Shown piece after piece: positions 1 through 54,915 of a stretch of 64,000 bases of DNA. The stretch's first letter is position 1, and every line of letters starts with the position of its first letter. The DNA comes from an uncultured Bdellovibrionales bacterium (GTDB lineage Bacteria; Patescibacteriota; Minisyncoccia; Moranbacterales; GWC2-37-73), in contig CAZCMV010000003.1 of the NCBI GenBank assembly GCA_964500125.1, positions 11,523-75,522 of the forward strand. Direction: 5' to 3'. Position numbers and translations under genes: made by a program. The notes under the pieces were generated by a model. It was not told the DNA's origin. It made no database searches and saw only the letters and a program-made list of their open reading frames with translations.

Positions 1-2211
1 GAAGCGGTGGAGACGGTAAAGGGGCCGCTTTTGATTATTGCCGGAGCGGGATCAGGCAAGACCAAGACGTTGACACACCGCGTCGCATATTTGATTCAAA
101 ATGCCAAAGTGAGGTCGCAAAATATCTTAGCGGTTACTTTCACCAATAAAGCTGCGCAAGAAATGCGCGAACGAATCGGCAAAATCCTTGGTGTTGTTGG
201 TGATGTTAGGGGGATGCGGGGAATGTATAATTCGAAGCTGCCACTGATCGGAACATTCCATTCGATTTGTGTGCGGATTTTGCGCAGTGAAATTGAAATG
301 CTCGGTTATGCCAAGTCATTTCACATTCTGGATGATCAAGATCAGCAAGCTTTGATGAAGCGAGTGATGAAAGAATTGGAAATTGATACAACCCAGTTTC
401 ATCCCAAAGCATTTTTAGGTGCGATCAGTAATGCTAAGAATGATTTGATTGAGGCTGAGCAATTTGCCCAAGAGGCGAACGGTTATTACGAAGAACTGGT
501 TGCGAAAACTTTTGTTAAATATCAACAAGAATTGAAAGCAAGCAATGGTTTGGATTTTGACGACATTATTTTGCTGACCGTGAAGTTGTTCAAAAAATTT
601 CCGTTGGTGCTGGAAAAATATCAGCTTATTTTTCAATTCATCATGGTTGATGAATATCAAGATACGAATAAGGCGCAATATGTGCTGGTGAATTTGTTGG
701 CGAGCAAACATCGCAATTTGTGCGTCGTGGGGGATGACTGGCAGTCGATTTACAAATTTCGCGGGGCAGATATTAAAAATATTTTGGATTTCGAAAAGGA
801 TTATCCGGAAGCAAAAGTAATTCATCTGGAACAGAATTATCGTTCATCGCAGATCATATTGGATGCGGCATATGGTGTGATCTCCAAAAACATCAATCGC
901 AAAGATAAAAAATTGTGGACAGAGAAAAAAGAAGGACACTTGATTACTTCATATGAAGCGGAGGATGAAAAAGAAGAAGCGGAATTTATTGCAAGAGAAA
1001 TAATGAATGCCAAGGGCACAAAACGCTATGCTGACTATGTTGTGCTTTATCGCACTAATGCCCAGTCACGTATGGTGGAAGAAGTTTTTTTGCGCCGCTC
1101 GATTCCGTATCGCATTATCGGGGGCATCAAATTTTATCAACGCAAAGAAATCAAAGATATGGTTGCCTATTTGCGTTTGATATTCAATAATAGCGATGTT
1201 GTTTCTTTGGAACGCATCGTCAATGAACCGAAACGCAACCTTGGAAAAGCGACGCTTGATAAATGGGTGAAGATTGCAAGAGAAATGGAAATGAATCCAA
1301 TTATAATGGGATATCGGGGAGACCTGGGAAATCAGGTTGATTCAGGATTGGGAAAAGTTAAAGTCGATGCGATTAAAAAGTTTTGTGAGTTTATTGTGAG
1401 GATGGATGAAATAAGAAACAGGATATCTTTGTCTGATTTTATTCAAAAAGTTTTTGCGGAGAGTGGCTATGAAGCGATGTTATTAAAAGAGGGAACAGAA
1501 GGAGAGGTTAGATGGGAGAATGTGAGGGAGTTAATTTCAGTTGCACAAAAATATGACAGTGAAGAAGCTAATGATGTGGAGGATAAATTAGCTGCTTTTT
1601 TGGAAGAGGTTGCGTTGGCTTCGGATGTGGATAATGTGGATCAAAATCAGGATGCAGTTCACCTTATGACCATGCACAGCGCCAAGGGCTTGGAGTTCCC
1701 AACAGTTTTTATTATCGGGCTTGAAGAAGGAATTATGCCGCACTCGCGTAGCCAGCTTTCTTATGAAGATATGGAAGAAGAGAGGCGACTCATGTATGTG
1801 GGGCTCACACGTGCCAAAGAAAAAATATATTTGTTGTTTACCAGGCAGCGAACTATTTTTGGTGCAACGCAAGTGAATCCACCGTCGAGATTTTTGGATG
1901 ATATACCGAAGGAGCTAGTGGAACGATGTGAACAAGAGATGAAATACAAGATGGAAGAAACAAGAAATAAGAAACAAGAAACAAATAAATTTCAAATTTC
2001 GAATTATAAATTTTCGAACAAATCTCAGATCTCGACTCCCAAATCTCAAGTCTCAAGCAGGGCTTCTTTCCGAGATGGAGAGAAGGTGGCGCATGGGGAG
2101 TTTGGAGAAGGAATTGTGGTTTCTTCGGATGAAGAGATTGTGACTGTGGTTTTCAAAAAAGCGGGAATAAAAAGATTAAGCAAGGAATATGCAAAATTGA
2201 AGAAAATTTAA
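1..2211 (+). CDS. pcrA: ATP-dependent DNA helicase PcrA/UvrD family. 5'-partial: the reading frame is already open at nt 1.
   Basis: Walker A 'AGAGSGKTKTLTHRVAYL' and UvrD helicase motifs throughout. C-terminal 'GEKVAHGEFGEGIVVS' Tudor-like tail typical of PcrA/UvrD. Confidence 0.85.
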   Translation, partial: EAVETVKGPLLIIAGAGSGKTKTLTHRVAYLIQNAKVRSQNILAVTFTNKAAQEMRERIGKILGVVGDVRGMRGMYNSKLPLIGTFHSICVRILRSEIEMLGYAKSFHILDDQDQQALMKRVMKELEIDTTQFHPKAFLGAISNAKNDLIEAEQFAQEANGYYEELVAKTFVKYQQELKASNGLDFDDIILLTVKLFKKFPLVLEKYQLIFQFIMVDEYQDTNKAQYVLVNLLASKHRNLCVVGDDWQSIYKFRGADIKNILDFEKDYPEAKVIHLEQNYRSSQIILDAAYGVISKNINRKDKKLWTEKKEGHLITSYEAEDEKEEAEFIAREIMNAKGTKRYADYVVLYRTNAQSRMVEEVFLRRSIPYRIIGGIKFYQRKEIKDMVAYLRLIFNNSDVVSLERIVNEPKRNLGKATLDKWVKIAREMEMNPIIMGYRGDLGNQVDSGLGKVKVDAIKKFCEFIVRMDEIRNRISLSDFIQKVFAESGYEAMLLKEGTEGEVRWENVRELISVAQKYDSEEANDVEDKLAAFLEEVALASDVDNVDQNQDAVHLMTMHSAKGLEFPTVFIIGLEEGIMPHSRSQLSYEDMEEERRLMYVGLTRAKEKIYLLFTRQRTIFGATQVNPPSRFLDDIPKELVERCEQEMKYKMEETRNKKQETNKFQISNYKFSNKSQISTPKSQVSSRASFRDGEKVAHGEFGEGIVVSSDEEIVTVVFKKAGIKRLSKEYAKLKKI

Positions 2212-6896: not shown

Positions 6897-8348
6897 ATGT
6901 ATAATCAAGAAAATAATCAAAAAATAACAAATCCTATATATTTTCCCATGATCACCCCTTCAGTATTTGGAAGGGCAGATTCTGCTGATGTTAGAAAAAA
7001 AAGATGGGATATTTTTAATGCTTTGCCAGAACAAGAAAAGGATAAAATCCTTGCTCCTAATGTTGCGTTTACATTGAAAAATGTGGCTGAAAAATATGAT
7101 CTTTCCGATGAAGAGGCAATGAAAATATCAAGATTGGTGCGCGAACTTTTTTTTAGAAACATCTCTAAGGAAAATATAGCGGTTGAACTGCAAAGAAGGA
7201 TCTCAAGATTGACCAATTCCGAATTAAAAGACGTGGAAAAGATTATCATATACCAAATATTAACAGCAAATACTTCTCAAATAAAAGAAGCATCTTTTAA
7301 AACAACCAATATAATCAAATTATCTTTGGAAAATGCGCTTTCTCGATATCCAAATCTTGGTGAGCAATCAATAACAGCAAATCAGTTGCGATTACGGATT
7401 ACTCCAAATCCAGTGAAACCCTCAATCAAGAATTGGATCAGTGATTATTGCGAACAAATGGGATCGGGAAAACATGAAGCATTTGATCGTGGAAATTATC
7501 TTTTTCATAGTGAGAACACAAAAATTCTGACTGCAATCGAAAGGAAGAAACTTTCACTTGTGCTTAAATCCTTGGACGAAGGCATGTTGCTTAATGTTGA
7601 TCCGGAAAAACAAGAAGTTGTGTTTGAATTAGAGGGCAGCTCTAATATTCAAATGGAAACTTCTGTTTTGCGTCAATCAATAAATCATCTTGCGAGTCGA
7701 GGTGGGCAAATGAATAGAAATGATGAGAACATAGCAAGGCGAGAAGTTGGCAGCGGACAAAAACAAGATACGAGAAAAACAGGACCCGGAACGGGTGGTA
7801 TTGGACAGGAGGGTGGTTTCATGGATGGAATGAGAACATTGAAAGAAAAAAAAGAAGTTAAAGAAACAAAAGAAATGGAAACCTCTGCGCAAACAATATT
7901 CAGACAAAGCAATTTGCGTAATTTTTCAAATCAAAATACACGTGTTACACAACAATCTGTTGACATGACTGGAGTTAATGCAATGTCGCCAAATCAAGAA
8001 ACAAAAATAAATCAGTTTTTTGGAGAAAACTCCGTGTCTGATTTTGTCGGTAAGGGAAAAACGGAAAAATTTTCGCCGAAACCACAAGTGTCTGTTCATT
8101 CCACGGCTGTTCCGTCGAACTTTGCTGATGTTATACAAAAAAAACCAAGCAATCAAACACAAGAAAAAATAATCGAAAATGCAGCAGGAGCCGCCACGCC
8201 TGCCAGGATTGTTCCAAAATCAATGTTGTCGCAAAATGCTAATGGAGGTAGTGTAAGTTTTTCTTCGCCGCAACAATTGCCCATCGAAAAAAAACAGATG
8301 CCTTCAAAAAAATCACCTTTTAGAATTGTTCCGCATGGCGATTTGTGA
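6897..8348 (+). CDS. Hypothetical protein, 483 aa; low-complexity, Q/N/K-rich C-terminal half.
   Basis: Long ORF with no recognisable motif. Sits between the VirB6-like gene and the pilin genes. Confidence 0.5.
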   Translation: MYNQENNQKITNPIYFPMITPSVFGRADSADVRKKRWDIFNALPEQEKDKILAPNVAFTLKNVAEKYDLSDEEAMKISRLVRELFFRNISKENIAVELQRRISRLTNSELKDVEKIIIYQILTANTSQIKEASFKTTNIIKLSLENALSRYPNLGEQSITANQLRLRITPNPVKPSIKNWISDYCEQMGSGKHEAFDRGNYLFHSENTKILTAIERKKLSLVLKSLDEGMLLNVDPEKQEVVFELEGSSNIQMETSVLRQSINHLASRGGQMNRNDENIARREVGSGQKQDTRKTGPGTGGIGQEGGFMDGMRTLKEKKEVKETKEMETSAQTIFRQSNLRNFSNQNTRVTQQSVDMTGVNAMSPNQETKINQFFGENSVSDFVGKGKTEKFSPKPQVSVHSTAVPSNFADVIQKKPSNQTQEKIIENAAGAATPARIVPKSMLSQNANGGSVSFSSPQQLPIEKKQMPSKKSPFRIVPHGDL

Positions 8349-8389
8349 TGAATTGTGAATTGTAAAATATGAATTATGAATTAATCAAT
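8344..8389 (+). repeat. Heptamer-period tandem repeat (tgaattg/atgaatt units) spanning the stop of the upstream gene and the start of pilin gene 1.
   Basis: tgtgatg aattgtg aattgta aaatatg aattatg aattaat. Confidence 0.6.
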
Positions 8390-8653: not shown

Positions 8654-8683
8654 AATAAAAATAAAAATGAAAGGAGGTGCGCT

Positions 8684-9034
8684 ATGAATTTAATTAAAAA
8701 TATTTCCTATTCAGTTGCTTCCGCAGCACTTATTTTGCCTGTTAGTGTTTTTGCTCAAATAAAAAACCCTGACAATACCGGGCTTCCATCAGGCTCTATT
8801 ACGGAAATTATTACGAATTTAATGAGATGGTTGTTGATGATGGTGGGAATTTTTGGTGTTATTGGTTTTGTTATTTCCGGTATTTTGTATCTTACATCTA
8901 CGGGAGATCAGACTATGATTGATCGTGCCAAGAAAGCTATGTTGTATTCAATCGTGGGCGTATTGGTTGCTTTGCTTGGTTTGGTTATTTTCGCCGCCAT
9001 GCAAAAATTACTTACTGGAGGGGGCGAATTCTGA
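8684..9034 (+). CDS. Small TrbC/VirB2-like pilin, paralogue 2.
   Basis: 116 aa with a signal peptide. Strong RBS AAAGGAGGTG upstream. Same C-terminal two-helix motif as paralogues 1 and 3. Confidence 0.55.
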   Translation: MNLIKNISYSVASAALILPVSVFAQIKNPDNTGLPSGSITEIITNLMRWLLMMVGIFGVIGFVISGILYLTSTGDQTMIDRAKKAMLYSIVGVLVALLGLVIFAAMQKLLTGGGEF

Positions 9035-9136
9035 TCAAATTTCTTGAAAAATATTTTTCACGAAAACAGGCTTCTTGGGGAGCTTGTTTTTGTTATTTTC
9101 ATGTCGTATAATTGAATCAAGAATAAAAAACAAATT

Positions 9137-9780: not shown

Positions 9781-9897
9781 TCATAGCCTTACAAAATGTG
9801 AACCTGTTAGGAATTTACGAATGTGCAAATATAAAAGCATTGAAATTAGCATGCTGGTAAATTCGTATTAAGTGTATAATTAATAGAATATAAATTT

Positions 9898-11154
9898 ATG
9901 CCAAGAAAGAAAAAACAAGAAGAAGAATCGCAAAGTCAGAGCGGAAGACTCGGCGAATTCGGCAGTGCTATTATGCAGATTGCTGAAGAAAAAGGAATTT
10001 CCAAAGACAAAGTTATTGAAACTATCGAGGCTGCTTTGGCCGCCGCCTATAAAAAGGATTATGGCAAGAGGGGCCAGAGAATTCGGGCAGAATTCAGTCC
10101 GGTTTCGGGAGATATGAAATTCTTTTTAGTGAAAGATGTTGTTGATGAAACTGTGCGCGATTTTGCCGAGCCTGAAAGCGAGGAGGAAGAAAAAAATGTA
10201 CGTGAAAGTATTGAAGAAGAAATGGCTGAAGGCGAAGAAAAATTGCCCAGATATAATGTGGAAAGAGATATGCTCCTGGAAGAAGCAAAAAAGATCAAAA
10301 AAGATGCACAAATTGGCGATGTGATTGAACTCGAGCTTGAGTCTCATAGTGATTATGGTCGTGTAGCTGCTCAAACCGCCAAACAAGTCATCATCCAGCG
10401 TATTCGTGAAGCTGAGCGTGATGCTATGTTTTCGGAATATAAAGAAAAAGAAGGAGAAGTGCTTAGCGGAACAGTACAAAGAATTGAAGGACGTAATGTT
10501 TATATTGATCTTGGTAAATCAGTCGGTGTGCTTTTACCGAACGAGCAAGTACGAGAAGAACGTTATCGCATAGGACAGCGTTTGAAAGTATATATGCACA
10601 GAGTCGAATCTGATCCTAAAGGTCCTGGTATAATATTGAGTCGTACGCATCCGGAGATGGTGCGTAAACTCTTTGAATTGGAAGTCCCGGAAATATTTGT
10701 TGGTACCGTTGTTATAAAATCAATCGCACGCGAGGCTGGCTCAAGGTCTAAAATAGCGGTAGTTTCAGAAGAAGAGGGAATTGATCCAATTGGTTCATGT
10801 GTGGGACAAAAAGGAACACGCGTACAGGCTGTCATTGATGAGCTTGGTGGAGAAAAGATTGATATCATCGAATGGAGCGAGAATATTGCCAAATTTATAG
10901 CTGCAGCTTTGAGTCCTGCCAAAGTTCTAAATGTGGAGGCAAATGAGGAGAAAAAAGAGGCTACAGTTACGGTTCCGGAAGACCAGCTTTCTTTGGCTAT
11001 TGGCAAGAAAGGACAAAATGTCCGTTTGGCAGCTAAGCTTACCGGTTGGAAGATCGATGTTCTTGGCGGAGGGTCCGTGCAAGATAATGTAGAAGTAGAA
11101 GATGAAAATGCGGAAGAACAGGGGGATGTGGAAAGCGAGGAAGTTTTAGAATAA
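9898..11154 (+). CDS. nusA: Transcription termination/antitermination factor NusA.
   Basis: S1 and KH regions with 'ILSRTHPEMVRKLFELEVPEI' and 'GSCVGQKGTRVQAV' signatures. Acidic insertion near the N-terminus and an acidic C-terminal tail. Confidence 0.85.
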   Translation: MPRKKKQEEESQSQSGRLGEFGSAIMQIAEEKGISKDKVIETIEAALAAAYKKDYGKRGQRIRAEFSPVSGDMKFFLVKDVVDETVRDFAEPESEEEEKNVRESIEEEMAEGEEKLPRYNVERDMLLEEAKKIKKDAQIGDVIELELESHSDYGRVAAQTAKQVIIQRIREAERDAMFSEYKEKEGEVLSGTVQRIEGRNVYIDLGKSVGVLLPNEQVREERYRIGQRLKVYMHRVESDPKGPGIILSRTHPEMVRKLFELEVPEIFVGTVVIKSIAREAGSRSKIAVVSEEEGIDPIGSCVGQKGTRVQAVIDELGGEKIDIIEWSENIAKFIAAALSPAKVLNVEANEEKKEATVTVPEDQLSLAIGKKGQNVRLAAKLTGWKIDVLGGGSVQDNVEVEDENAEEQGDVESEEVLE

Positions 11155-12335: not shown

Positions 12336-13628
12336 ATGATTAAATCAGAAGTGAAAAAATTAGACAAATCGCAAGTGGAGATAGTTATCTCTGTTTCTTG
12401 GGATGAATGGCAAAAATATTTGGAAATGGCAATTGCCGATATCTCCAAGGAAATCAAGATCGAAGGTTTTCGCAACGGAAAGGCGCCAAGAAAGATGATT
12501 GAGCAGAAAGTTGGAACAGCAATGATTTTGGATGAAGCTGCCAATAAAACCGTACAAAAAACATATCCTGCGGTTTTAGTGCAGCAAAAAATAGAAGCTA
12601 TCGGACAGCCAAAGGCTCAGATTAATAAGCTTGCCGAGGGTAATGATCTGGAATACGCAGTAGTTACTTCAGTTATGCCTGAAATTAAAATAAATCCTTG
12701 GAGAGAAAAGGCTAAAAAGATAAACAAGGAATTTGCCAAACAAGAAACTGAAGTAAAAGATGAGGAAATCAAAGAAGAGCTCAAGACCTTGGCCAATAGT
12801 CGTGTGCAACTGGCTACTGTTGAACGGGAGGCTAAAGATGGCGACAGTGTAGTTATCGACTTTAAGGTTTTACAGGATGGTGTGCCAATTGAACACGGAA
12901 CTGCGCAAGATCACCCGTTGATTTTGGGAAAGAAAGTTTTCATCCCAGGATTTGAAGAGCAGGTTGTAGGGATGAAAAAAGGAGAAGAAAAAGAATTCGT
13001 ACTAAATTTCCCGGATTCCTATCATGAAAAAAGTCTAGCTGGCAGGCCGGCAACTTTTCAAGTCAAACTTAAGGAGGTCCAAGAAAGGAAAACTCCGGAA
13101 ATCACAGATGAATTTGCCAAATCTTTGGGAAAGTTTGAAAATGTAGATGCCTTAAAAAAGAATATTCGCGAAGGCGTTTTGGAGGAGAAGAAGCAGCACG
13201 CTCAAGAAGAAAGACGCGCGAAACTTTTGGAAATGCTTGCAGAATGCGCAGAGGTGGAGATCCCTGAGATTCTCATTGATGAGGAAGTGAAAAAAATGTT
13301 CGGTGAATTTGAAATGCAGCTATATGGTATGGGCATGGACATGGAAAAATATTTGGAGCATACGAAGAAAAAACGTGAAGAAATAGAGCAAGAATGGCGT
13401 CCGCAAGCGCAGAAAAGGATTGTTATTGCTTTAGCTTTGGAACAACTGGCAAAAGATGAAGAAATAAATGTGCCCAATGAACGTATAGAAGAAGAAATGA
13501 ATAAAACCATGGCTCGCTATAAGGACATCAAAGATGTTAAGAAGAATATCGATATTCAGAAAGTATATACTTATGTCAAAGGAACTTTGATGAATGAGAA
13601 AGTTTTTGAATTGCTGGAATCAGTATAA
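12336..13628 (+). CDS. tig: Trigger factor (ribosome-associated chaperone / PPIase).
   Basis: N-terminal ribosome-binding 'GFRNGKAP' signature, FKBP-like middle domain. Followed by clpP in the conserved order. Confidence 0.85.
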   Translation: MIKSEVKKLDKSQVEIVISVSWDEWQKYLEMAIADISKEIKIEGFRNGKAPRKMIEQKVGTAMILDEAANKTVQKTYPAVLVQQKIEAIGQPKAQINKLAEGNDLEYAVVTSVMPEIKINPWREKAKKINKEFAKQETEVKDEEIKEELKTLANSRVQLATVEREAKDGDSVVIDFKVLQDGVPIEHGTAQDHPLILGKKVFIPGFEEQVVGMKKGEEKEFVLNFPDSYHEKSLAGRPATFQVKLKEVQERKTPEITDEFAKSLGKFENVDALKKNIREGVLEEKKQHAQEERRAKLLEMLAECAEVEIPEILIDEEVKKMFGEFEMQLYGMGMDMEKYLEHTKKKREEIEQEWRPQAQKRIVIALALEQLAKDEEINVPNERIEEEMNKTMARYKDIKDVKKNIDIQKVYTYVKGTLMNEKVFELLESV

Positions 13629-13665
13629 ATCGAAAATCAAAATGCAAAAATCAAAATGAGTAACT
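13627..13665 (+). repeat. Heptamer-period repeat tract (aaaatca / aaatgca units) in the tig-clpP spacer.
   Basis: aaatcg aaaatca aaatgca aaaatca aaatgag. Confidence 0.5.
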
Positions 13666-13769
13666 TCGACAAATTGAAGATGGGCAATGAAAATGTAAAA
13701 TTCGGCGTTATTTTAATTTTGAATTAATATTTTGCACGTTGAGATTTGCATTTTGTATTTATTAAGATT

Positions 13770-18090: not shown

Positions 18091-18099
18091 AGTGTGCAA

Positions 18100-18255
18100 A
18101 TTCAAGCAACAAACATCAAGTAACAAATTCCAAACAATACTCAATAACCAAATTTTAATAATCAAATGAATATTAGAAAATTGTAATTTTGTAGTTTGTT
18201 TGGAATTAGAAAATTGATTATTGGAAATTCCTTGCGAAGCAAGGTGTTGTGGATA
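18100..18255 (+). repeat. Long heptamer-period low-complexity tract downstream of rny.
   Basis: caaattc aagcaac aaacatc aagtaac aaattcc aaacaat ... ttgtaat tttgtag tttgttt ggaatta. Confidence 0.5.
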
Positions 18256-18337
18256 AGGTGATTTGCTTTATTTTCGGGAAAAAACTAGAATAGATGTAGA
18301 TAAACATATACATAAAAAACTAGAAGGAGGTGGCAAC

Positions 18338-26964: not shown

Positions 26965-27045
26965 TTTTTTATTGCTTTTTATTGATTTTTATTGTATTGT
27001 ACTTTATGAGCTTTGGACTTTATAACTTTATGAACATTTAATTTT
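26965..27045 (+). repeat. Heptamer-period tract (ttattgc/tttttat/tgatttt/tattgta units) upstream of ychF.
   Basis: ttttttattgctttttattgatttttattgtattgtactttatgagctttggactttataactttatg. Confidence 0.5.
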
Positions 27046-28726: not shown

Positions 28727-28743
28727 ATTACAGGCTTTTGTAG

Positions 28744-28772
28744 CGGGTGACCTTTGCGGTCACCCGTTTTTT
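28744..28772 (+). terminator. Intrinsic terminator after the DUF4870-like gene.
   Basis: Stem CGGGTGACC/GGTCACCCG, loop TTTGC, T6. Confidence 0.6.
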
Positions 28773-28789
28773 ATTTTATTATGTATACA

Positions 28790-28925
28790 TAAGAAAAAAT
28801 TTCGAATTTCTAATTTTGAATTTCGAATCAGTTTTGAATTGTCAATGTTTGAATGTTTCAAAATTCAACCAGTAGGATTTTATTCAAAATTTGAAATTCA
28901 TAATTTAAAATTCTATAAACTATTT
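28790..28925 (+). repeat. Heptamer-period tract (ttcgaat/tttgaat/ttcaaaa units) filling the pyk upstream region.
   Basis: ttcgaat ttctaat tttgaat ttcgaat ... tgaatgt ttcaaaa ttcaacc ... caaaatt tgaaatt cataatt taaaatt. Confidence 0.55.
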
Positions 28926-30356
28926 ATGGATAAGCGAACAAAAATTGTTGCCACATTGGGGCTTGTGTCTGATACCAAAGAAGTGCTCAAAAAAATGATT
29001 GATGCTGGGATGAATGTGGGCAGACTCAATTTTTCCCACGGTTCATATGAATGGCATGGCAACATCATCAAAGTTTTGCGTGAACTTTCTGAAGAGAGTG
29101 GTCAATCAATCGGAATCTTGGCTGATCTTCAAGGACCACGCATTAGAACAGTAGTTGAGAAAGAGATAGAGATAGAGAAAGGGGAAATGGTGCAGGTTGG
29201 CGATATATCTGTTTTGGAAAATCACAAATCACAAATCTCAAATCTCAAATCTTTCCTGCTTGATGTTCCGAATATTGTAGATGATATTGAAGTGGGGCAT
29301 GAAATCTTAATTGAGGATGGGATTATTAAAGTTGTTGTGAAGGAAAAGAGTGAAGGAATGCTTCTTTGCGAGGTTGTTGATGGGGGAACGGTGAAAAATC
29401 ACAAAGGCGTAAATATTCCTGATGCCACTTTGCACATTGATCCGGTTACGGAAAAAGATGAAAAAGATTTGGAGTTTGTACTAAAAGCAGAGGTTGATTT
29501 TGTGGCACTTTCTTTTGTTAGTGATGGTAAGGACATTGAAAATCTTCGTGACCGCATGAAGAAAATTTTGGGCAGAGAGGATAATCTACCCCAAATAATT
29601 GCCAAAATAGAACGCAAAGAAGCGATCAAGAATTTGGATGATATTATTGAACATACTGATGCGGTTATGGTAGCACGTGGTGACCTGGGAATCGAAATGG
29701 ATGGCACGAAAGTGGCAGTACTCCAAAAAGAGATAATTAAAAAATGTTTGAGCAATATGAAGCCAGTGATTGTGGCTACTCAGATGCTAAATTCTATGAT
29801 TGAAAATCCTCGCCCAACTCGCGCCGAGGTAAGTGACGTGACCAATGCCGTCATTGATCATGCTGATGCCGTGATGCTTTCAGGAGAATCTGCAAATGGT
29901 AAATACCCAGTGGAAAGTGTTGAAGCTATGGCTAATATCATTCGTAACACTGAAGAGTCTCCTTTTGATGATCTGATAAAACCACTTTCCTTGGAATGCA
30001 AATCAGACTTTGCTTGTTTGGTCAAAGGCGCCTACGAGCTTGCAAAAAACAGTACTGCTTCGGCGATTATGCTTGCCAGTGTGAGTGGCTATACTGCTCG
30101 CCTTGTGTCTCATTTTCGTCCGGAACAGCAAATGTTGGTAGTAACCAACAATATTCTTACATACAGACAGTTATCTTTAGTATGGGGAATAAAGCCTTTT
30201 ATGACCGAGGAGAAAAATTTGCTTTCTGCGATTGATTTTCTTGTCCAGGCAAGTAAAAGAGATGGACTCTTGAAAGATGGACAAAATACTGTTATTATAC
30301 TCGGCAGTGTTCCGGGAGGCGAAAGAATGCAGCTGGTGGGGGTAAAAAGCGTTTAG
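28926..30356 (+). CDS. pyk: Pyruvate kinase.
   Basis: 'MDKRTKIVATLG', 'RLNFSHGS', 'MVARGDLGIE' signatures. Start set at MDKRTK. Confidence 0.85.
   Translation: MDKRTKIVATLGLVSDTKEVLKKMIDAGMNVGRLNFSHGSYEWHGNIIKVLRELSEESGQSIGILADLQGPRIRTVVEKEIEIEKGEMVQVGDISVLENHKSQISNLKSFLLDVPNIVDDIEVGHEILIEDGIIKVVVKEKSEGMLLCEVVDGGTVKNHKGVNIPDATLHIDPVTEKDEKDLEFVLKAEVDFVALSFVSDGKDIENLRDRMKKILGREDNLPQIIAKIERKEAIKNLDDIIEHTDAVMVARGDLGIEMDGTKVAVLQKEIIKKCLSNMKPVIVATQMLNSMIENPRPTRAEVSDVTNAVIDHADAVMLSGESANGKYPVESVEAMANIIRNTEESPFDDLIKPLSLECKSDFACLVKGAYELAKNSTASAIMLASVSGYTARLVSHFRPEQQMLVVTNNILTYRQLSLVWGIKPFMTEEKNLLSAIDFLVQASKRDGLLKDGQNTVIILGSVPGGERMQLVGVKSV
29219..29253 (+). repeat. Five tandem 7-bp units (aaatcac x2, aaatctc x2, aaatctt) in frame inside pyk, encoding ...NHKSQISNLKS...
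   Basis: ggaaaatcacaaatcacaaatctcaaatctcaaatcttt. Confidence 0.7.
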
Positions 30357-30357
30357 T

Positions 30358-30438
30358 ATTTTGTATTCAGTATTCAGTATCCAGTATTATTATAGTATGG
30401 AATCCATATACATCATACTATATACTAGATACTGTTTT
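30358..30438 (+). repeat. Heptamer-period tract (ttcagta / atactat units) between pyk and tRNA-Ser.
   Basis: ttttgta ttcagta ttcagta tccagta ttattat agtatgg aatccat atacatc atactat atactag atactgt. Confidence 0.5.
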
Positions 30439-30525
30439 GGAGGAGTCGCATAGCGGTTTAGTGCACCACCTTGGAAAGGTGGCATATCCGAAAGGGTATC
30501 GGAGGTTCGAATCCTCTCTCCTCCG
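30439..30525 (+). tRNA. tRNA-Ser (anticodon GGA), class II with long variable arm.
   Basis: Acceptor GGAGGAG/CTCCTCC. Anticodon stem CCACC/GGTGG, loop TTGGAAA. Variable arm ATATCC-GAAA-GGGTAT. T-arm GGAGG-TTCGAAT-CCTCT. Confidence 0.75.
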
Positions 30526-30821
30526 CTTTAAGTTTGGTGCATAAAGTGTGCAAAAAATGCGGACATTTTTTCAAAGAAGACGAGGATGTCTGTAATTCTT
30601 GGGAAAAGAAAGGAAACCAATAACTAAAATTCTCAATAAAAAACAATAGAAATAATAAAAAAGATGAGTTTGTTAAATTTACTTATCAGAAGCGGAACAA
30701 TGAGGTTTCGCTTAAATTTTACCTTAAATATTGCTATATTGCGGAAAATGCTTCATGATGGGGATGGTTGAAATTTTCTTGTTTCAAATGAGTATTAAAG
30801 GGCAATAGCAACACGGAAATA

Positions 30822-32660
30822 ATGCGTTCAGATGTCGAAGAAATAAAATCAAGGCTTAATATTGTCGATGTTGTCGGCGAATATGTCAGATTAACTAAGG
30901 CAGGGGCAAATTGGAAAGGCCTCTGTCCTTTTCATCATGAAAAAAACCCTTCTTTTATGGTACACGAGGAAAAGCAAATTTATCATTGTTTTGGTTGTCA
31001 AAAAGGCGGTGATATCCTTTCCTTTATCATGGAAATAGAGGGTTTGGAGTTCCGTGAAGCGCTTAAAATATTGGCAGAACGGGCTGGTGTGCAGCTTAGT
31101 AATCAAGCGCCTCAGCAAAAAACAGATGACAAGAAAAAGATTCTAGAAATAATTGAATTGGCAACCAAATTCTATGAAGTTCAACTCTGGAAAGGTGTTG
31201 GCAAAGAAAATGTGATGGGTTATTTGCGTGAGCGTGGCTTAATCGAAGATACCATTCGCAATTTTCGTTTGGGTTTTGCGCCACAGGGCTGGCGTAATGT
31301 GCTTAATTTTCTGACTGAAAGAGGATATAAGGTGGAAGATATTGAAAGAGCAGGACTGATAATCAGGAAAAATCCTAAATCCGAAATCCTAAATCCTAAA
31401 CAAATTCAAAATTCAAAATTCAAAATTCAAAATTCTTTTTATGATCGTTTTCGTAATCGCATTATGTTTCCCATTTGTGATGGTATGGGCAAGGTGATTG
31501 GATATAGCGCACGTGTGGCGCCGGGAGATGATGAATCACAAGCCAAATATATCAATACTCCGGAAACGAGTGTTTATCACAAAAGCGAGGTGCTGTATGG
31601 CTTACATCTTGCCAAGCAAGCAATTAAACAAAAGAATGCTGTATTGTTGGTGGAAGGTAATATGGATGTGATCGCTTCACATCAAGCAGGTCTTAGCAAT
31701 ACGGTTGCTGTTTCGGGTACCGCGCTTACATCAAAACAGATAGATATTCTCAAAAGATATGCTAAAAACATCCAGATGCTTTTCGATATGGACAGTGCAG
31801 GAAATCAAGCGCTCAATCGTAGTGCTGATTTGGCCTTTAATAAGGATGTAGAAGTGTCTGTGGTGCGACTGGGGGAAGGAAAAGATGCAGCTGATGTGGT
31901 ACAAAAAGATGCTTCCAAACTTGTTTCGGCTGTTGAGGCAGCAATGCCGGCGATGGAATATTTTTTTCAAGCGGCTGTCTCAGAATATGATTTGCGTGAT
32001 CCACAACAAAAAAAGCAGTTTGTCCAGGATTTGGGGCAGCATGTGGCAAATATGGAAAACCAAATCGAAAAAATGCATTGGATTAAAAAAATAGCTCATG
32101 AAATAGATTCAGCGGAAGAAACAGTGTTGGAAGCGGTGTCTTCTCTTAAAGAACACAATCCCTATCGGCATGAAGAAACAAATGATGTCGTAGTTGAAGA
32201 TAATTCATTTGCTGAGCGTAGCGATTTAGTTAAAGAAAAATTAATAGGACTCATGCTTAGTGATAAGGACGCGTGGCAATGGTGCGCTGAAGAATATATT
32301 ACGGATCCGTATGTTAAAGAAGACAAATTTTTGCAAACACTTTTCAAAGAAGGTGCAAAACATGGATATGCGCTCGAACAGATGTTATTTTCGCTTGAAG
32401 ACGAGAAACTGCGGGGCAGGTTTGCTAAGCTGGCTTTCGATAGCAAATACCGTTTTGAAAGTGCAGATGCAATGGAAAATAGCAGCGAAGAAATAAAAGA
32501 ACAAATAAAGCAATATATGGCACAATTTGTCAAAGAATTGCAAAAACAGAAATTGCGTAGTATCATAAGAGATATCAAAAAAGCCGAACAGTCGGGTGAT
32601 AGAAACCTGCTCGGTGAGCTAATGAGTGAGTTTACAAAACTTTCTCAAGAATTAACTTAG
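30822..32660 (+). CDS. dnaG: DNA primase DnaG.
   Basis: Zinc ribbon 'CPFHHEKNPSFMV...YHCFGCQKGGD'. TOPRIM 'LLVEGNMDVIASHQAG', 'DMDSAGNQA'. Confidence 0.85.
   Translation: MRSDVEEIKSRLNIVDVVGEYVRLTKAGANWKGLCPFHHEKNPSFMVHEEKQIYHCFGCQKGGDILSFIMEIEGLEFREALKILAERAGVQLSNQAPQQKTDDKKKILEIIELATKFYEVQLWKGVGKENVMGYLRERGLIEDTIRNFRLGFAPQGWRNVLNFLTERGYKVEDIERAGLIIRKNPKSEILNPKQIQNSKFKIQNSFYDRFRNRIMFPICDGMGKVIGYSARVAPGDDESQAKYINTPETSVYHKSEVLYGLHLAKQAIKQKNAVLLVEGNMDVIASHQAGLSNTVAVSGTALTSKQIDILKRYAKNIQMLFDMDSAGNQALNRSADLAFNKDVEVSVVRLGEGKDAADVVQKDASKLVSAVEAAMPAMEYFFQAAVSEYDLRDPQQKKQFVQDLGQHVANMENQIEKMHWIKKIAHEIDSAEETVLEAVSSLKEHNPYRHEETNDVVVEDNSFAERSDLVKEKLIGLMLSDKDAWQWCAEEYITDPYVKEDKFLQTLFKEGAKHGYALEQMLFSLEDEKLRGRFAKLAFDSKYRFESADAMENSSEEIKEQIKQYMAQFVKELQKQKLRSIIRDIKKAEQSGDRNLLGELMSEFTKLSQELT
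31369..31428 (+). repeat. Tandem 7-bp units (aaatcct x4 then aaattca x4) in frame inside dnaG, encoding NPKSEILNPKQIQNSKFKIQNS.
   Basis: aaaaatcctaaatccgaaatcctaaatcctaaacaaattcaaaattcaaaattcaaaattc. Confidence 0.7.
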
Positions 32661-34220: not shown

Positions 34221-34273
34221 TTTATGAAAATTGAAAATAAAAAACAAGATATGTGTTCGATTTTTCAACAAAC

Positions 34274-34303
34274 AAAAATTACGTAATTAATTACGTAATT
34301 TTT
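34274..34303. promoter_or_regulatory. Perfect 30-bp palindrome AAAAATTACGTAATTAATTACGTAATTTTT containing two TTACGTAA half-sites.
   Basis: Exact reverse-complement symmetry, located between convergent rpoD and the HEAT-like membrane-protein gene. Confidence 0.5.
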
Positions 34304-34326
34304 GTTAAGCTCAATTGGCCGTAAAT

Positions 34327-36343: not shown

Positions 36344-37984
36344 CTACTTTTTCAATTCCAGGACTATTTTGAATCTTGGAATCTGCAAGACATCAAAACC
36401 TATGAGTGTTATTTGCTTATTCTCGTTTAAATTTTTGTTCAAAATATCAAGAGGGATGCCATTATAGACCGAAACTTCTTCAATCCGGAAGTTTTCCAGT
36501 CGTTTTGTTAGTTCTTCTTTTGAAACCCAATTTCCCATTGTCTGATTCGTTGCGCTAGTCCACTTTTTTACTTTAGGAATTAAATCGATCGCATCAAGAA
36601 CTTTTGTTTCTTTAGGATAAATAATTTCATAAATGTTTGAGTTCAAATTTTTATAATCAGGAGTTGATAAATATGCGCGCAGTGAATTAATCCCGCTATC
36701 TTTAACCAATTCAAAGTCTTTTTCCGCAATCTCTGAGGTTTTGATAATTCCTCTATCATGGATATTTTTTTCTGGACTTCCCCAAAGTTTTGTTTGTTTT
36801 TCATTGGAAAGAGCCCCGAATTCTTCCAGGGAAGCAAGTCCGCTAGATGTTCCATCCAAGGTGGCATCTTTTTCAAAAGGATAATAACTGAAAGCCCCTT
36901 CTTGGGGGATATAGAACTTTTCAAATTTAACATTAATATATTTTTCAACCAGCTTTTTTGCATTTTGTTTATTCTCATCGGAAGCATTTTTCCATAAGTA
37001 TCTGGTGAGTGTTCGCAGTCCTTTGGGAGTCTCAAGCCCCCATTCATGCCATTCATCCAGGTCATCTTTGCCTTCTGGAGTTGCTTTTTCTAATTCTGTA
37101 AGCACTGACTGAAATAATTCATCCCTGTATCTTAGCGGAAATTCTTCATAAATATCATTTCCTTCGCTATCAACAAATGTTTTTAATATTGGCGCGGTAT
37201 TGCTGACATCCATCTTTACTAATTTTCCATCTTTTGATTTTGGCCCCCAAAGCCCTGTTTCCGGGTCTTGATAATTATAAGCCCACTCTAGCAGTGCGTG
37301 CTTCCATTCAGGGGAAAAATTATAAAGATTATGTTTCTGGACCATGCTCACTTCATCTTCATTATGATGTTCATAATCTCTGGCCAGACTTATCAAATCC
37401 CGAACATTATGAAAAGAAGTTTGAGGAAATTTCAAGGCTAACCATCCGACAGTGGACCAATCTTCCAGAATAGGAATAAGTTTTTCCGTAGTATTAAAAT
37501 TATCCAAGAAATATAAAGGATATTTTAGTTTCAAAGGTTGTCCAGTCTCCTTTGCCAAAGCATCAAGATGCAGCAAAACATTTTCAGTTGTTTTATAGTA
37601 AGTGTTTAAGGGATAAGAATCATCTATGAACGCTCCGGTCTTTGGATTCTGCAGGCTAAGATAAAAATCAAACTCTTCCTCTTTTGTTTTGAATTCAGGC
37701 ATTTTAACGAGACCTTCTCGGGTTTTCATCTGATAATGCAACTCATTAAGCTTTTTTATTGCGGTATAATAATGCCCTTTATCCAACCAGTAAGATATAC
37801 CCAGCATTTTGAATTCAAATTCTGCCATGTAATAATTTTCCTCCTGAAGTTCTTTGTTTAAGCGGAACATTTCTTTTACTTGTGATTTTGTATGCAACAC
37901 TACGAGGGTTAATAAGAGGGAAGTAATGACAAACAGCATCAAGGCAATCAGAGTTTTTTTATGTTTGATATTTTCTATTTTCAT
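36344..37984 (-). CDS. Hypothetical membrane-anchored protein, 546 aa (N-terminal TM, large extracytoplasmic domain).
   Basis: Long ORF with Trp/Tyr-rich extracytoplasmic region; no recognised motif. Confidence 0.5.
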   Translation of the reverse strand: MKIENIKHKKTLIALMLFVITSLLLTLVVLHTKSQVKEMFRLNKELQEENYYMAEFEFKMLGISYWLDKGHYYTAIKKLNELHYQMKTREGLVKMPEFKTKEEEFDFYLSLQNPKTGAFIDDSYPLNTYYKTTENVLLHLDALAKETGQPLKLKYPLYFLDNFNTTEKLIPILEDWSTVGWLALKFPQTSFHNVRDLISLARDYEHHNEDEVSMVQKHNLYNFSPEWKHALLEWAYNYQDPETGLWGPKSKDGKLVKMDVSNTAPILKTFVDSEGNDIYEEFPLRYRDELFQSVLTELEKATPEGKDDLDEWHEWGLETPKGLRTLTRYLWKNASDENKQNAKKLVEKYINVKFEKFYIPQEGAFSYYPFEKDATLDGTSSGLASLEEFGALSNEKQTKLWGSPEKNIHDRGIIKTSEIAEKDFELVKDSGINSLRAYLSTPDYKNLNSNIYEIIYPKETKVLDAIDLIPKVKKWTSATNQTMGNWVSKEELTKRLENFRIEEVSVYNGIPLDILNKNLNENKQITLIGFDVLQIPRFKIVLELKK

Positions 37985-52670: not shown

Positions 52671-52714
52671 AAAACTATTGCTATTTGTTATTTTACGTGT
52701 TATGCTTATCCATT

Positions 52715-53974
52715 ATGCATGATAATGACATTCAATTTGACGTGGTGGTGATTGGCGGCGGTCCAGCGGGGATGATGGCTGCTGTTTGCGCTGCCAAAAA
52801 AGGTGCGCGAGTCGCCTTGATTGAGAAAAATGATCGTCTGGGTATTAAGCTTCTGATGACGGGTAATGGGCGATGCAACTTCACACAAAATGAAAAGGAT
52901 ATCAATGAATTGGTTAAAAAATATGGCAAAAATGGCAGATTCTTGTATTCAGCATTGTCTACGTTTGGTCCCAAGAACACGATTGATTTTATGGAAAGAG
53001 CCGGCGTCAAAACGAAAGTTGAAAAAGATGGCCGCGTTTTTCCAGTCAGTGACCAAGGCAAAGATGTGCTTGGCGCGTTGGAAAAAATACTTAAGGAAAA
53101 TAACGTTACTTTTTTTCTCAAGTCCACTATTGAGGAAATCGAAGCTGAAAATGGCAAGATCCGTAAAATTATTTTGAATAAAAAAAGAGAAGTGACGGCG
53201 CATAGCTATATTTTTGCCATGGGTGGCAAATCATATCCGAGCACTGGCAGTGCAGGGCAGGGCTATGAATGGGCCAAAAAGCTGGGGCACACCATTGTCG
53301 AGCCGCAGCCTCTTTTGGTTCCAATTGAAACAAAAGAAAAATGGGTGGCTGAACTAGCTGGAATAACCGCACATAGTTGCGCCATCAGTATTTGGCAAGG
53401 TGGCAAGAAGCAAACAACTTCAGAAGGGGACATGCTTTTCACGCACCTGGGTGTGAGTGGTCCACTGGTACTTAATTTAAGTCGCAGCATAAGACCTATT
53501 TTAGCAAGCGGCGAAGTAAAGCTGAAAATAGATCTCAAGCCCTATTTATCATTTGAGCAGTTGGATGAAATCGTGCGCAAAGATTTTGAAAAAAATGCAT
53601 CCAAAAAATTAGCCAATTGTCTTGCTGATTTATTTTCTCCAAAATTACTTGAATTTTTGCTGAATTATAGTGGTGTTGATTTGGAAAAGCATGCCGCCAA
53701 AATAAGCAAGCAGGAAAGACATAAGCTCATAGAATTGTTTAAAGGCTTGGAACTTACGGTTGAAAAAATGTTCGGTTTTGAGCGCGCCATGGTTACAGGT
53801 GGAGGCATAAGCACGAAAGAAATTGATTCTAAAACCATGAATTCTAAAGTTATCCAAAATCTTTTTTTTGCCGGGGAAATCATCGATGTTGATGGTCCGA
53901 CCGGTGGCTATAATTTGCAATTGTGTTGGACAACAGGGCATTTAGCAGGTTCAAGCACAGCCAAACAACAATAA
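52715..53974 (+). CDS. FAD-dependent oxidoreductase of the HI0933/BaiN (aminoacetone-oxidase-like) family.
   Basis: 'DVVVIGGGPAGMMAAVCAAKKGARVALIEKN...GNGRCNFTQ'. Start set at MHDNDI. Confidence 0.75.
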   Translation: MHDNDIQFDVVVIGGGPAGMMAAVCAAKKGARVALIEKNDRLGIKLLMTGNGRCNFTQNEKDINELVKKYGKNGRFLYSALSTFGPKNTIDFMERAGVKTKVEKDGRVFPVSDQGKDVLGALEKILKENNVTFFLKSTIEEIEAENGKIRKIILNKKREVTAHSYIFAMGGKSYPSTGSAGQGYEWAKKLGHTIVEPQPLLVPIETKEKWVAELAGITAHSCAISIWQGGKKQTTSEGDMLFTHLGVSGPLVLNLSRSIRPILASGEVKLKIDLKPYLSFEQLDEIVRKDFEKNASKKLANCLADLFSPKLLEFLLNYSGVDLEKHAAKISKQERHKLIELFKGLELTVEKMFGFERAMVTGGGISTKEIDSKTMNSKVIQNLFFAGEIIDVDGPTGGYNLQLCWTTGHLAGSSTAKQQ

Positions 53975-53990
53975 CCAAAATGCTAAATTG

Positions 53991-54140
53991 AAGATACAAG
54001 AAACAAGATACGAAATACAAACAAAACTCAATATTCAAATTTAAAATATTCAAATCGCCCTGGTTTGGTTTTTTGTTTTTTGGAATTTGTAATTTGTTTG
54101 TATCTTGGTTCTCGTATCTTGTCCCTTGTGCCCCGTATCT
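53991..54140. repeat. Two blocks of heptamer-period repeats in inverted orientation (gatacaa/gaaacaa/gatacga... versus ...gtatctt/ggttctc/gtatctt) flanking an AT-rich core. Potential long imperfect hairpin.
   Basis: The left block is approximately the reverse complement of the right block; both are 7-bp periodic. Confidence 0.5.
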
Positions 54141-54441
54141 TTTAAGAGTTCCCGCGATTTGCTATAAAAAACAGTGCAAATTGTAATAAATTTACACAAA
54201 ATATTTCTGCAAAAAGCCTTATACTTATTCAGATAAAAACAATACTGATTGTGCTTTTGCTGTTTACGATTGTGGGAGGCTATTTATATCGTTCTTATCA
54301 CGACTTGTCTAAGATGATAAATTCAAGTAGCAATTTGCAACAAACAACAGTCAACTTACAACCGATAATCCGCAACAAGCAGTAAATAATTTACAACAAT
54401 CAACGGGTGATTCACGAATACAAAGTCCGATTGAAAATGCA

Positions 54442-54915
54442 GTGGGAAGAGTAACTAAAAAACCGTTTGGAATATATATTACATCCAAAACTTCACCAGT
54501 GCAGCCGGAAAGATTCCAAGGTTATCACACCGGCACTGATTTTGAAACTACGATTGATGAACAAAACATTGATGTGCCCATAAAAGCTATGTACAATGGC
54601 AAGCTTTTGGAGGCGCGACATGCCAGCGGTTATGGCGGCGTGGCAATTCAGGTATGTACATTGAATAATGAGCCAGTTACGGTGACGTATGGGCACCTTG
54701 AGCTTTCTAGTATGGTTGCAAAAGTTGGTGATGAATTAAAAGCGGGTGAATTTCTGGCAAATCTCGGTACGGGATATTCAACTGAAACTGATGGTGAGCG
54801 AAAGCATTTGCATCTAGGAATTCATAAAGGCCCCGCCATCAACATTCGTGGCTATGTTTCATCCAAAGGTCAACTTTCTGCTTGGCTGGATGCTTGCACA
54901 TTAGTTTGCAAATAA
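54442..54915 (+). CDS. M23 (LytM-type) metallopeptidase domain protein. GTG start, no signal peptide as called; probably the C-terminal part of a frameshifted longer gene.
   Basis: 'GYHTGTDF' (HxxxD) and 'HLHLGIH' (HxH) M23 motifs. Confidence 0.65.
   Translation: MGRVTKKPFGIYITSKTSPVQPERFQGYHTGTDFETTIDEQNIDVPIKAMYNGKLLEARHASGYGGVAIQVCTLNNEPVTVTYGHLELSSMVAKVGDELKAGEFLANLGTGYSTETDGERKHLHLGIHKGPAINIRGYVSSKGQLSAWLDACTLVCK

Follow-up and report, generated by a model that had tools for sequence, protein, structure and literature searches.

In this study, we analyzed a 64-kb stretch of DNA (the window) from a Candidatus Moranbacteria bacterium of the Candidate Phyla Radiation (CPR)/Patescibacteria, an assignment based on the relatives of its DnaG protein. 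Short tandem arrays of 7-nt units lie in its intergenic spacers, including the spacer upstream of the pyruvate kinase (PK) gene pyk at 28790-28925, and inside several of its genes. The finding is real, and repeats of this kind have been described before, in cyanobacteria and other bacteria. On balance, we lean towards reading the arrays as slippage-born heptanucleotide microsatellites of the type named short tandemly repeated repetitive sequences (STRR) or long simple sequence repeats (LSSR), which spacers and protein loops tolerate, and which are stable as soon as they are short and imperfect. What goes beyond the cases that we found described are in-frame arrays at conserved positions of essential genes with turnover of the repeat unit, the replacement of whole arrays between closely related genomes, and the fact that a minimal CPR genome carries them.

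Period-7 signal in the window

Period-7 repeats were detected over the 64 kb with Tandem Repeats Finder (TRF) and with a lag-match scan (21-nt windows, self-match of at least 75%, tracts of shorter period excluded), for which second-order Markov shuffles served as background. TRF returned 15 period-7 rows with 2.1-5.1 copies; the ten main arrays have 3.9-5.1 copies and a 75-100% match. The lag-match scan found 13 period-7 tracts with a total length of 465 nt, against 0.15 tracts expected in shuffles (about 90-fold), and 0-3 tracts per lag at lags 4-22 other than multiples of 7. Ten tracts, each tested against shuffles, show a lag-7 self-match of 0.44-0.76 (p ≤ 0.0025). At least ten distinct heptamer units are present; units vary by tract, and those of adjacent arrays are one or two bases apart. 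The pooled intergenic autocorrelation is likewise maximal at lag 7 (0.329 versus about 0.30 at adjacent lags); the autocorrelation of coding DNA has period 3 only. According to our own tally from the scan and the intergenic and coding data, spacers hold about 1.2 arrays per kb versus 0.09 per kb of coding DNA. The window is AT-rich, with a GC content of about 39%.

A preliminary description of this DNA had claimed seven heptamer tracts, pervasive in the spacers. Six of the seven are significant (lag-7 match 0.44-0.67, p ≤ 0.0025), but the tract at 26965-27045 is not made of heptamers (lag-7 match 0.45, p = 0.25); it has periods 10 and 8 and consists of the decamer TTTTTATTGA in 2.9 copies plus a period 8/24 repeat. 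Likewise, the quoted units tgaattg, aaaatca, ttcgaat and ttcagta are correct, but ttattgc is the unit of this decamer tract. The lag-7 peak in intergenic DNA stands, yet pervasive is too strong a word, given that about 6 of the 48 spacers of at least 40 nt bear the signal. Overlooked at that stage were the arrays inside open reading frames (ORFs), namely in uvrD/pcrA, pyruvate kinase, dnaG and the linker of an M23 peptidase (all p = 0.0005).

Two classes can be distinguished. Class I comprises the intergenic inverted arrays, which form long imperfect AT-rich hairpins; five of these fold better than dinucleotide shuffles, with z from -2.0 to -4.45. Class II comprises the unidirectional arrays, i.e., all arrays within ORFs and one at the start of a pilin-like gene, and their structure is below that of shuffles. 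A search of the window against Rfam returned four tRNAs only and no known RNA family at the heptamer tracts. Helically phased A-tract curvature was considered and rejected: lags 10 and 11 hold one and zero tracts in the scan, and the intergenic autocorrelation has no peak at 10-11. Since these lags are not enriched, helical phasing is unsupported, and the curvature or phasing signal once suggested for the tracts finds no footing.

In-frame arrays in conserved proteins

The arrays within ORFs are the following:

1946..2060, plus strand: compound in-frame array of (AAGAAAC)n, (AAATTTC)n and (AAATCTC)n in uvrD/pcrA (TRF 1955-1984 and 1987-2013)
29214..29257, plus strand: in-frame (AAATCWC)x5 array in the pyruvate kinase gene, encoding ENHKSQISNLKS (TRF 29219-29252, 96% match)
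31367..31441, plus strand: in-frame compound array in dnaG, (AAATCCT)x4 with one G substitution, then perfect (AAATTCA)x5
54326..54416, plus strand: (NCAACNN)n array in the Q/N-rich linker of the M23 peptidase (lag-7 match 0.49, p = 0.0005)

The uvrD/pcrA array (ORF 7..2211; lag-7 match 0.62, p = 0.0005) lies in the linker that joins the helicase core to the C-terminal Tudor domain. The Pfam domains UvrD_C, reaching amino acid 613, and Tudor, at amino acids 691-733, are in one frame, and the strand is unstructured over 1946-2060 (z +0.27). In pyruvate kinase the array (lag-7 match 0.76, p = 0.0005) encodes a loop of the B (lid) domain and is an insertion compared to the solved structure 2e28. 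The dnaG array (TRF 31370-31400 and 31402-31435, the latter with a 100% match; lag-7 match 0.74, p = 0.0005) encodes a loop in the N-terminal domain of the catalytic core, which falls in a gap versus structure 2au3, and the 128 positions of the DNAG_N Pfam profile are stretched over 149 amino acids in the window DnaG.

On both sides of these three arrays the Pfam domains resume in the same frame. No rotation of the in-ORF units yields a stop trinucleotide, and in dnaG the variant AAATCCG replaces AAATCCT exactly at the unit where TAA would be in frame. Judging from these stop-free units and from the G substitution that removes the sole in-frame TAA, the arrays within ORFs are translated and purged by selection.

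A further extended domain is found in NusA (window 9898-11154), whose N-terminal domain has 156 amino acids versus a Pfam profile of 119 positions. A heptamer array was rejected for this insertion, which is an acidic, E-rich stretch.

Persistence of position and turnover of arrays in relatives

The density of period-7 tracts in other loci compares as follows:

The window: 13 period-7 tracts in 64 kb
Moranbacteria-like metagenome loci: 11 period-7 tracts in 31 kb
Moranbacteria genomes: 24 period-7 tracts in 279 kb
Other phyla: 18 period-7 tracts in 694 kb

Period 7 is the top lag in every Moranbacteria set, whereas lags 12 and 21 slightly exceed it in the other phyla. Because arrays are present in other phyla too, and also in unrelated GC-rich loci, where heptamer arrays include inverted pairs, the phenomenon is general in bacteria and unusually dense in the Moranbacteria clade. 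To call it unusual for a compact genome, as was done before, is therefore fair, the density being about eight times that of unrelated loci, though the phenomenon itself is already known. In L001, which at about 77% nucleotide identity is the closest relative, 22 kb were scanned and no period-7 tract reached the threshold.

Inside the essential genes it is the position of the arrays that is kept. Among nine Moranbacteria-type pyruvate kinases (53-86% protein identity), eight carry an insert of 8-28 amino acids in the B-domain loop and one has none. The loop DNA of those eight has period 7 (p ≤ 0.01), with the units AAATCWC, CAATTTT, CAATTTC, AAATTTK and AAATCCK. More generally, relatives with 45-86% protein identity have the same PK and DnaG loops with period-7 DNA made of other units. 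In the DnaG loop, period-7 DNA is found in about 8 of 17 relatives; GC-rich palindromes are found there in L004, L009, L019 and L005, and only a short loop in L008, L012, L013 and L018.

Arrays of close relatives were compared by anchoring on their flanks, as six related 20-kb loci were too poorly syntenic for multiple alignment. The four genomes L009, L010, L013 and L014, 85-89% identical to one another, have three distinct states of the DnaG loop. In one spacer, L009, L010 and L019 share a 37-nt (AAAGTAG)n array with one substitution; L013 has an (AATTTTT)n array there, and L014 unrelated sequence. The 81-nt inverted array between PK and tRNA-Ser in the window is missing in L001, where the gap between the PK coding sequence and the tRNA is 4 nt. 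Arrays common to relatives of 80-89% identity thus keep their length, and the remaining relatives carry another insert or lack one. Arrays are gained, lost or replaced whole, and shared ones are unchanged in length.

GC-rich hairpins are nested in arrays in the PK gene of L027, in dnaG of L003 and L005, and in L108, and target-site duplications around them are inconsistent. Two related observations were made in these genomes. First, GC-rich hairpin inserts lie in frame in the same protein loops, namely in dnaG of L004, L009 and L019, about 540 nt after the start codon, in dnaG of L003 and L005 and in PK of L027; CCCTCTCCTTATCAAGGAGAGGG, which encodes SDLTPSPSPYQGEGG, and TCCGCCGGCTGGCGGAC are examples, and the inserts can be likened to the insertions of Rickettsia palindromic elements (RPE). 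Second, a mini-element of about 45 nt, palindromic and GC-rich (CCCGCCTCGACTCGC...GCGAGGCGGG), occurs in five Moranbacteria loci (L005 2440-2500, L025 10860-10920, L108 340-400, L024 1150-1200 and L002 9480-9530) and not in the window. It sometimes lies beside or within heptamer arrays, and in L002 apparently within an ORF. This mini-element looks like a dispersed element resembling repetitive extragenic palindromes (REP) or miniature inverted-repeat transposable elements (MITE), distinct from the heptamer arrays.

Intergenic arrays

The arrays and tracts at or between gene ends are the following:

8346..8383, plus strand: unidirectional (TGAATTN)x5 array (TRF 8348-8383, period 7, 5.1 copies)
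13627..13760, no strand: inverted heptamer arrays in the spacer from the tig stop to clpP (TRF 13627-13656)
18100..18255, no strand: degenerate inverted arrays, CAANNNN followed by TTGNNNN, between the stop of RNase Y and the HU gene
28796..28925, no strand: (AATTTCG)x4.4, then period 8/14 repeats (TRF), upstream of the pyruvate kinase gene
30354..30434, no strand: inverted arrays, (AGTATTC)x5 then (ATATACT)x4 (TRF), filling the spacer from the PK stop to tRNA-Ser(GGA)
53990..54140, no strand: inverted arrays, (AAGAWAC)n then (GTATCTT)n (TRF 53991-54020 and 54064-54097)
37955..37982, minus strand: weak short heptamer tract of the GAAAATA type, seen in the lag-7 scan alone (threshold 0.75)

Inverted pairs folding as long AT-rich hairpins make up the majority of the intergenic arrays. 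Between tig and clpP, a left arm of the A-rich AAATCRA type faces a T-rich right arm (lag-7 match 0.62, p = 0.0025 for 13627-13665; 0.48, p = 0.0005 for 13627-13760), and the hairpin at 13620-13765 has a fold z of -2.0. The degenerate pair upstream of the HU gene, which was identified by Pfam, has a lag-7 match of 0.44 (p = 0.0005) and forms a long hairpin at 18091-18262 (z -3.24). The pair behind PK (lag-7 match 0.55, p = 0.0005 for 30358-30438) folds at 30345-30440 with z -4.44, and the one downstream of ORF 52685..53974 (lag-7 match 0.59, p = 0.0005) forms a long hairpin at 53975-54165 with an RNA fold of -44.4 kcal/mol and z -4.45. On direct reading, several of these hairpin arrays begin at a stop codon and finish in a T-run (30345-30440, 53975-54165, 13620-13765). 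A uniform orientation with the A-rich arm first, as terminators would show, was rejected, being found in only three of five. None of the array-bearing spacers recurs elsewhere in the window.

The array at 8346..8383 belongs to class II (lag-7 match 0.67, p = 0.0005 for 8344-8389) and forms no hairpin (fold z +0.73). It runs from the TGA stop (8346-8348) of ORF 6897..8348 across the ATG (8369) of a pilin-like gene of the type IV secretion system (T4SS; Pfam PF18895), so that the overlap with both the upstream stop and the pilin ATG that had been noted before is borne out. The weak tract at 37955..37982 lies at the 5' end of the minus-strand ORF 36344..37984.

The tract upstream of pyruvate kinase

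The tract at 28790-28925, to which attention had been drawn at the outset, has an overall lag-7 match of 0.50 (p = 0.0005). Its clean heptamers are confined to 28798-28828, and the remainder has period 8/14; together both parts form an imperfect hairpin at 28776-28930 (fold z -3.39). The tract lies between an intrinsic terminator at 28742-28768, identified by a terminator scan, and the pyruvate kinase ATG at 28926. Its right arm holds a promoter-like TTGAAA (28891-28896), separated by a 17-nt spacer from a putative TATAAA box (28914-28919) that lies 6 nt before the pyk ATG. Consensus scans for promoters and terminators around the arrays gave counts near the shuffle level and nothing special at the arrays; the only canonical terminator in them is the one preceding this tract.

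A Shine-Dalgarno-like motif is found in only 12 of the 57 ORFs of the window, and upstream of many ORFs a TATAAT-like box ends 6-12 nt ahead of the start codon (e.g., 28891-28928, 9870-9900, 4725-4754 and 62445-62475). This suggests that leaderless or very short-leader mRNAs are widespread in the window, and transcription is perhaps largely leaderless given the scarcity of the motif. With its place after a terminator and upstream of a promoter-like site, among genes that would be mostly leaderless, the tract may therefore be largely untranscribed DNA. In relatives, the spacers orthologous to those upstream and downstream of PK contain other hairpins. In L001, the orthologous spacer 5' of pyk (140-235) contains a tandem repeat of about 21 nt, with ACTCGAATG and ACTCGAATGGAC as units, and not heptamers.

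A frameshifted linker array in the M23 peptidase gene

Homologues of the M23 peptidase have 210-250 amino acids and consist of a transmembrane segment, a Q/N-rich linker with a 7-amino-acid periodicity, and the M23 domain. In the window (54203-54915), the transmembrane N-terminus, in the frame of 54203, is out of frame with the M23 domain (ORF 54442..54915): amino acids 1-46 of the homologue P0012 align to one frame and amino acids 30-225 to the other. Compared to the closest homologous DNA (L108), an 11-nt gap and a 4-nt insert leave the window net 7 nt shorter inside the (ACAACNN)n array, and it is this deficit that places the N-terminus and the catalytic domain in different frames. In addition, the homologue's ATG is ATA in the window gene. 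The same frameshifted state is present in the Logan contigs L104 and L105. The gene is probably decaying, or yields a truncated 157-amino-acid product without a membrane anchor. As the ATG is lost too and the state is common to all assemblies, decay would account for it, and not a reversible switch.

Stability across sequencing runs

For a comparison at the population level, we used Logan contigs from three other runs, which are consensus assemblies and span two parts of the window, 26.9-34.3 kb and 51.4-57.9 kb. Their identity to it is 99.9-100%, with three single-nucleotide polymorphisms (SNPs), all outside arrays, and every covered array is identical. Exact-protein look-ups returned no contigs besides these. 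No intermediate or close strains were found in a collection of 15 billion proteins, in which ten of ten tested proteins are singleton 90% clusters, and in a scan of Joint Genome Institute (JGI) metagenomes no PK match was closer than 64% identity.

The sole perfect array, (AAATTCA)5 in dnaG, is a place where contigs end in both Logan runs that cover it: the left contigs end at 31433 and 31431, and the right contigs start at 31408 and 31411. Consequently, dnaG is not assembled whole in any Logan contig. A homogeneous allele with five copies of AAATTCA contains no repeated 31-mer, and the breaks suggest length heterogeneity of this array.

A perfect palindrome of about 34 nt, with the halves AAAAATTACGTAATT and AATTACGTAATTTTT, lies at 34272-34305, 3' of rpoD and between convergent genes. 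It covers a TRF tandem pair at 34277-34300, and both Logan contigs stop inside it, at 34300.

Origin of the arrays

We propose that replication slippage with a preference for a 7-nt register would duplicate a local heptamer, and that mutated units would be re-amplified, giving compound arrays and locus-specific units. Template switching would turn some arrays into inverted pairs (quasi-palindromes), i.e., the long AT-rich hairpins. Such arrays would persist where harm is small, in untranscribed or spacer DNA and in surface loops or linkers of proteins, and within proteins only stop-free, frame-preserving versions would survive. Short imperfect arrays would be stable, with turnover occurring chiefly by gain, loss or replacement of whole arrays. 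They would not act as switches, and rare indels of unit size would wreck genes, as may have happened to the M23 peptidase. Some hairpin arrays may gain a secondary role as terminator or in processing, which the evidence does not demand. Slippage combined with mutation is favoured because units differ by tract and neighbouring arrays by one or two bases. The slippage or repair bias already put forward in the preliminary description agrees, on the side of slippage, with the specificity for period 7, the compound arrays and the net 7-nt frameshift in the M23 gene.

Several points weigh against this origin. Stepwise 7-nt changes in essential ORFs would be lethal frameshifts, so that the in-ORF arrays need multi-unit or block events, and simple slippage explains these poorly. 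The finding of one array, another array, a GC-rich palindrome or nothing at one and the same site resembles block insertion or replacement. A polymerase bias, if any, must be uneven within the clade, because L001 is nearly array-free over 22 kb. No copy-number variant was directly observed in the assemblies and relatives compared. The deep positional persistence of the PK array could indicate selection on the nucleic acid or the peptide, and the 7-nt register itself is left without explanation.

Functional cis-elements are an alternative that we regard as rather unlikely. The inverted arrays would then be selected as RNA hairpins, serving as AT-rich intrinsic terminators of an unusual kind, stabilisers of 3' ends or processing sites of RNase III or RNase Y, or they would be UP-like promoter DNA, and the unidirectional ones platforms for a binder of single-stranded nucleic acid with a footprint of about 7 nt, e.g., a cold-shock protein. 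Such roles are suggested by the significant folding of five spacer arrays, by the arrays that span a stop codon to a T-run, by the other hairpins in the orthologous PK-flanking spacers of relatives and by the good promoter-like site in the right arm of 28796-28925. Moreover, heptamer repeats of Nostoc altered reporter expression (bioRxiv 10.1101/2022.06.06.494920), and each CspB protein binds one heptamer according to a citation in PMC4679880. However, no unit or motif is common to the arrays, the promoter-like and terminator-like scans are unremarkable there, and the arrays within ORFs are less structured than shuffles. L001 lacks the PK/tRNA-Ser block and any period-7 tract at threshold in 22 kb, and 28796-28925 itself, situated after a canonical terminator and upstream of a promoter-like site, is probably largely untranscribed.

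The exchange of blocks at single sites can also be explained by insertion or by mobile footprints, which we hold to be improbable. Here, preformed units would be deposited, for instance by an element that duplicates a 7-bp target, or spread by ectopic conversion, followed by selection for permissive sites. This would account for an array, a GC-rich palindrome or nothing at one DnaG loop in genomes of 80-89% identity, for the spacer with one array, another or neither among relatives, and for the 81-nt inverted array that the window has and L001 has not. It would also fit the GC-rich hairpins nested in arrays, the palindromic mini-element of about 45 nt in five Moranbacteria loci, and the recurrence of units across loci of the window, with AAATTTCGAATT both in uvrD and 5' of PK and AAATCTC in both uvrD and PK. 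On the other hand, the arrays are not accompanied by a transposase-like gene or by terminal repeats, each has its own unit and hence there is no multi-copy family, and the flanking duplications at nested hairpins are inconsistent. Bacterial cut-and-paste elements seldom leave footprints, and by our informal judgement the sharing of units could arise by chance among A-rich, stop-free heptamers.

A bolder proposal, to which we likewise give little credence, is that an active process of Moranbacteria deposits heptamer blocks in a 7-nt register, repeatedly at the same permissive sites. It would supply in-frame, 7-amino-acid-periodic loops and linkers to PK, DnaG, UvrD and the M23 peptidase, and perfect arrays would be length-polymorphic in populations. 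If true, the clade could reveal the enzyme behind the bacterial excess of 7-nt repeats, the CPR replication and repair set being minimal.

The arrays are very unlikely to be contingency loci, in which gain or loss of a unit would toggle genes such as the pilin gene, with its ATG in an array, or the M23 peptidase gene. The geometry of a switch is possible at the pilin start, where direct reading shows that loss of one ATGAATT unit brings TAA in frame, and in the M23 linker, which is off frame by one unit, and Logan contigs of two runs break within the sole perfect array. Yet a single state is observed, and for M23 it is the OFF state everywhere, with ATA in place of the homologue's ATG. The other in-gene arrays lie in dnaG, pyk and uvrD, and in the essential genes among them (dnaG, pyk) the gain or loss of one unit would be lethal. 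The compared assemblies agree in every covered array despite SNPs elsewhere, shared arrays are invariant in length in relatives of 80-89% identity, and most arrays are short, with four to five imperfect copies. The same evidence speaks against the contingency-locus mechanism raised in the preliminary description. Finally, chance low-complexity sequence or an assembly artefact, for which one could invoke the AT-rich genome and the one claimed tract that is not of period 7, has virtually no probability in view of 13 tracts versus 0.15 in shuffles, the same covered arrays in independent assemblies and the reading frames kept through arrays.

Comparison with known repeat systems

Bacterial heptanucleotide repeats have been known since 1990. 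In that year, Mazel et al. reportedly described the classical STRR units CCCCAGT, TTGGTCA and CAACAGT, and Elhai et al. are said to have associated small mobile repeats with heptameric repeats in Nostoc in 2008. None of the classical units, which define cyanobacterial subfamilies and not the general kind, forms an array in the window according to TRF and the lag scan. TTGGTCA is present twice in the dnaG insert of a single relative, L010, and is presumably the STRR2 unit.

Heptanucleotides are cited as the most abundant class of long simple sequence repeats (SSRs) in most prokaryotic genomes, with the contact of about 7 nt with the polymerase during slippage as the proposed cause (Mrazek 2007, as cited in PMC4679880 and PMC4692102). 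The window has the defining features of this kind: tandem 7-nt units, an excess of period 7, a bias to intergenic DNA and many units per genome. A patchy phylogenetic distribution and slippage as the proposed origin are further likenesses. The window differs in that its genome is a reduced CPR genome, its arrays are short (4-5 copies), and several are in frame in housekeeping genes at positions shared by the clade. In a search of the literature, no paper turned up that connects heptamer repeats to CPR/Patescibacteria.

In Nostoc and Xanthomonas, heptamers are strongly over-represented in intergenic DNA, inverted pairs included, and arrays at one site differ in length and sequence between close species (PMC4692102). 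Deletion of heptamer repeats in Nostoc changed reporter expression by a mechanism that is not known (bioRxiv 10.1101/2022.06.06.494920). Further examples are the STRRs of Calothrix and Nostoc and the TAACTGA repeats of marine Beggiatoaceae (PMC4679880 for the latter). Like the cyanobacterial STRR and the Nostoc and Xanthomonas heptamers (GGGGAYT, GGGAATC, TTCAAAA), the arrays of the window are intergenic, lie near start and stop codons, form stem-loops as inverted pairs and are matched in close species by arrays of another length and sequence at the corresponding site; (TTCAAAA)n of Nostoc is even a rotation of the dnaG unit AAATTCA. Unlike them, they have no dominant unit family and no G-quadruplex potential, and they are AT-rich. 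The Beggiatoaceae repeats are also heptamer direct repeats near start codons, with occasional copies in ORFs that give 7-amino-acid-periodic peptides (PMC4679880), but they have TAACTGA as a single fixed unit, whereas each tract of the window has its own. TAACTGA is not among the units of the window arrays. With a different unit in each tract, it is unlikely that one sequence-specific factor binds the arrays.

Rickettsia palindromic elements constitute a multi-copy conserved family of 100-150 nt, inserted in frame into genes. The likeness lies in short DNA of a non-coding type that is in frame in surface loops of essential proteins and in intergenic copies with hairpin potential; the heptamer arrays differ in being unique per site and internally periodic. 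When examined as MITE, REP or RPE, five spacer arrays have the inverted symmetry of a hairpin, and dispersed copies of one sequence are absent. Phase-variable SSR loci of Haemophilus and Neisseria (PMC12721329, PMC8262952) resemble the window in having a non-triplet unit at a start codon or within an ORF, and in the window one gene is frameshifted by one unit; the window differs in that no length polymorphism was seen, the arrays are short and imperfect, and essential genes are included.

Although heptanucleotide repeats are the commonest class of long SSRs, neither the cause of the 7-nt register nor their function is established. The window adds a dense case from an ultra-small CPR genome, in which arrays inside essential genes keep their position and not their sequence. 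The phenomenon is thereby extended to a lineage whose replication and repair toolkit is minimal, and the candidate causes are therefore fewer. In practice, such arrays break short-read assemblies, and they can give rise to frameshifted genes and to low-complexity inserts in conserved proteins, all of which may mislead CPR annotation.

Other observations

The pilin-like gene with the array at its start is the first of three successive T4SS-pilin (PF18895) genes at 8369-9706 of the window, with 94, 116 and 189 amino acids. They are preceded by two large ORFs without a Pfam match (4752-6800 and 6897-8348). A comparison of L001 (1803-9874) with the window (30527-30690) shows about 8 kb between tRNA-Ser and dnaG that are missing from the window; this segment of L001 may be a tRNA-adjacent island or an indel.

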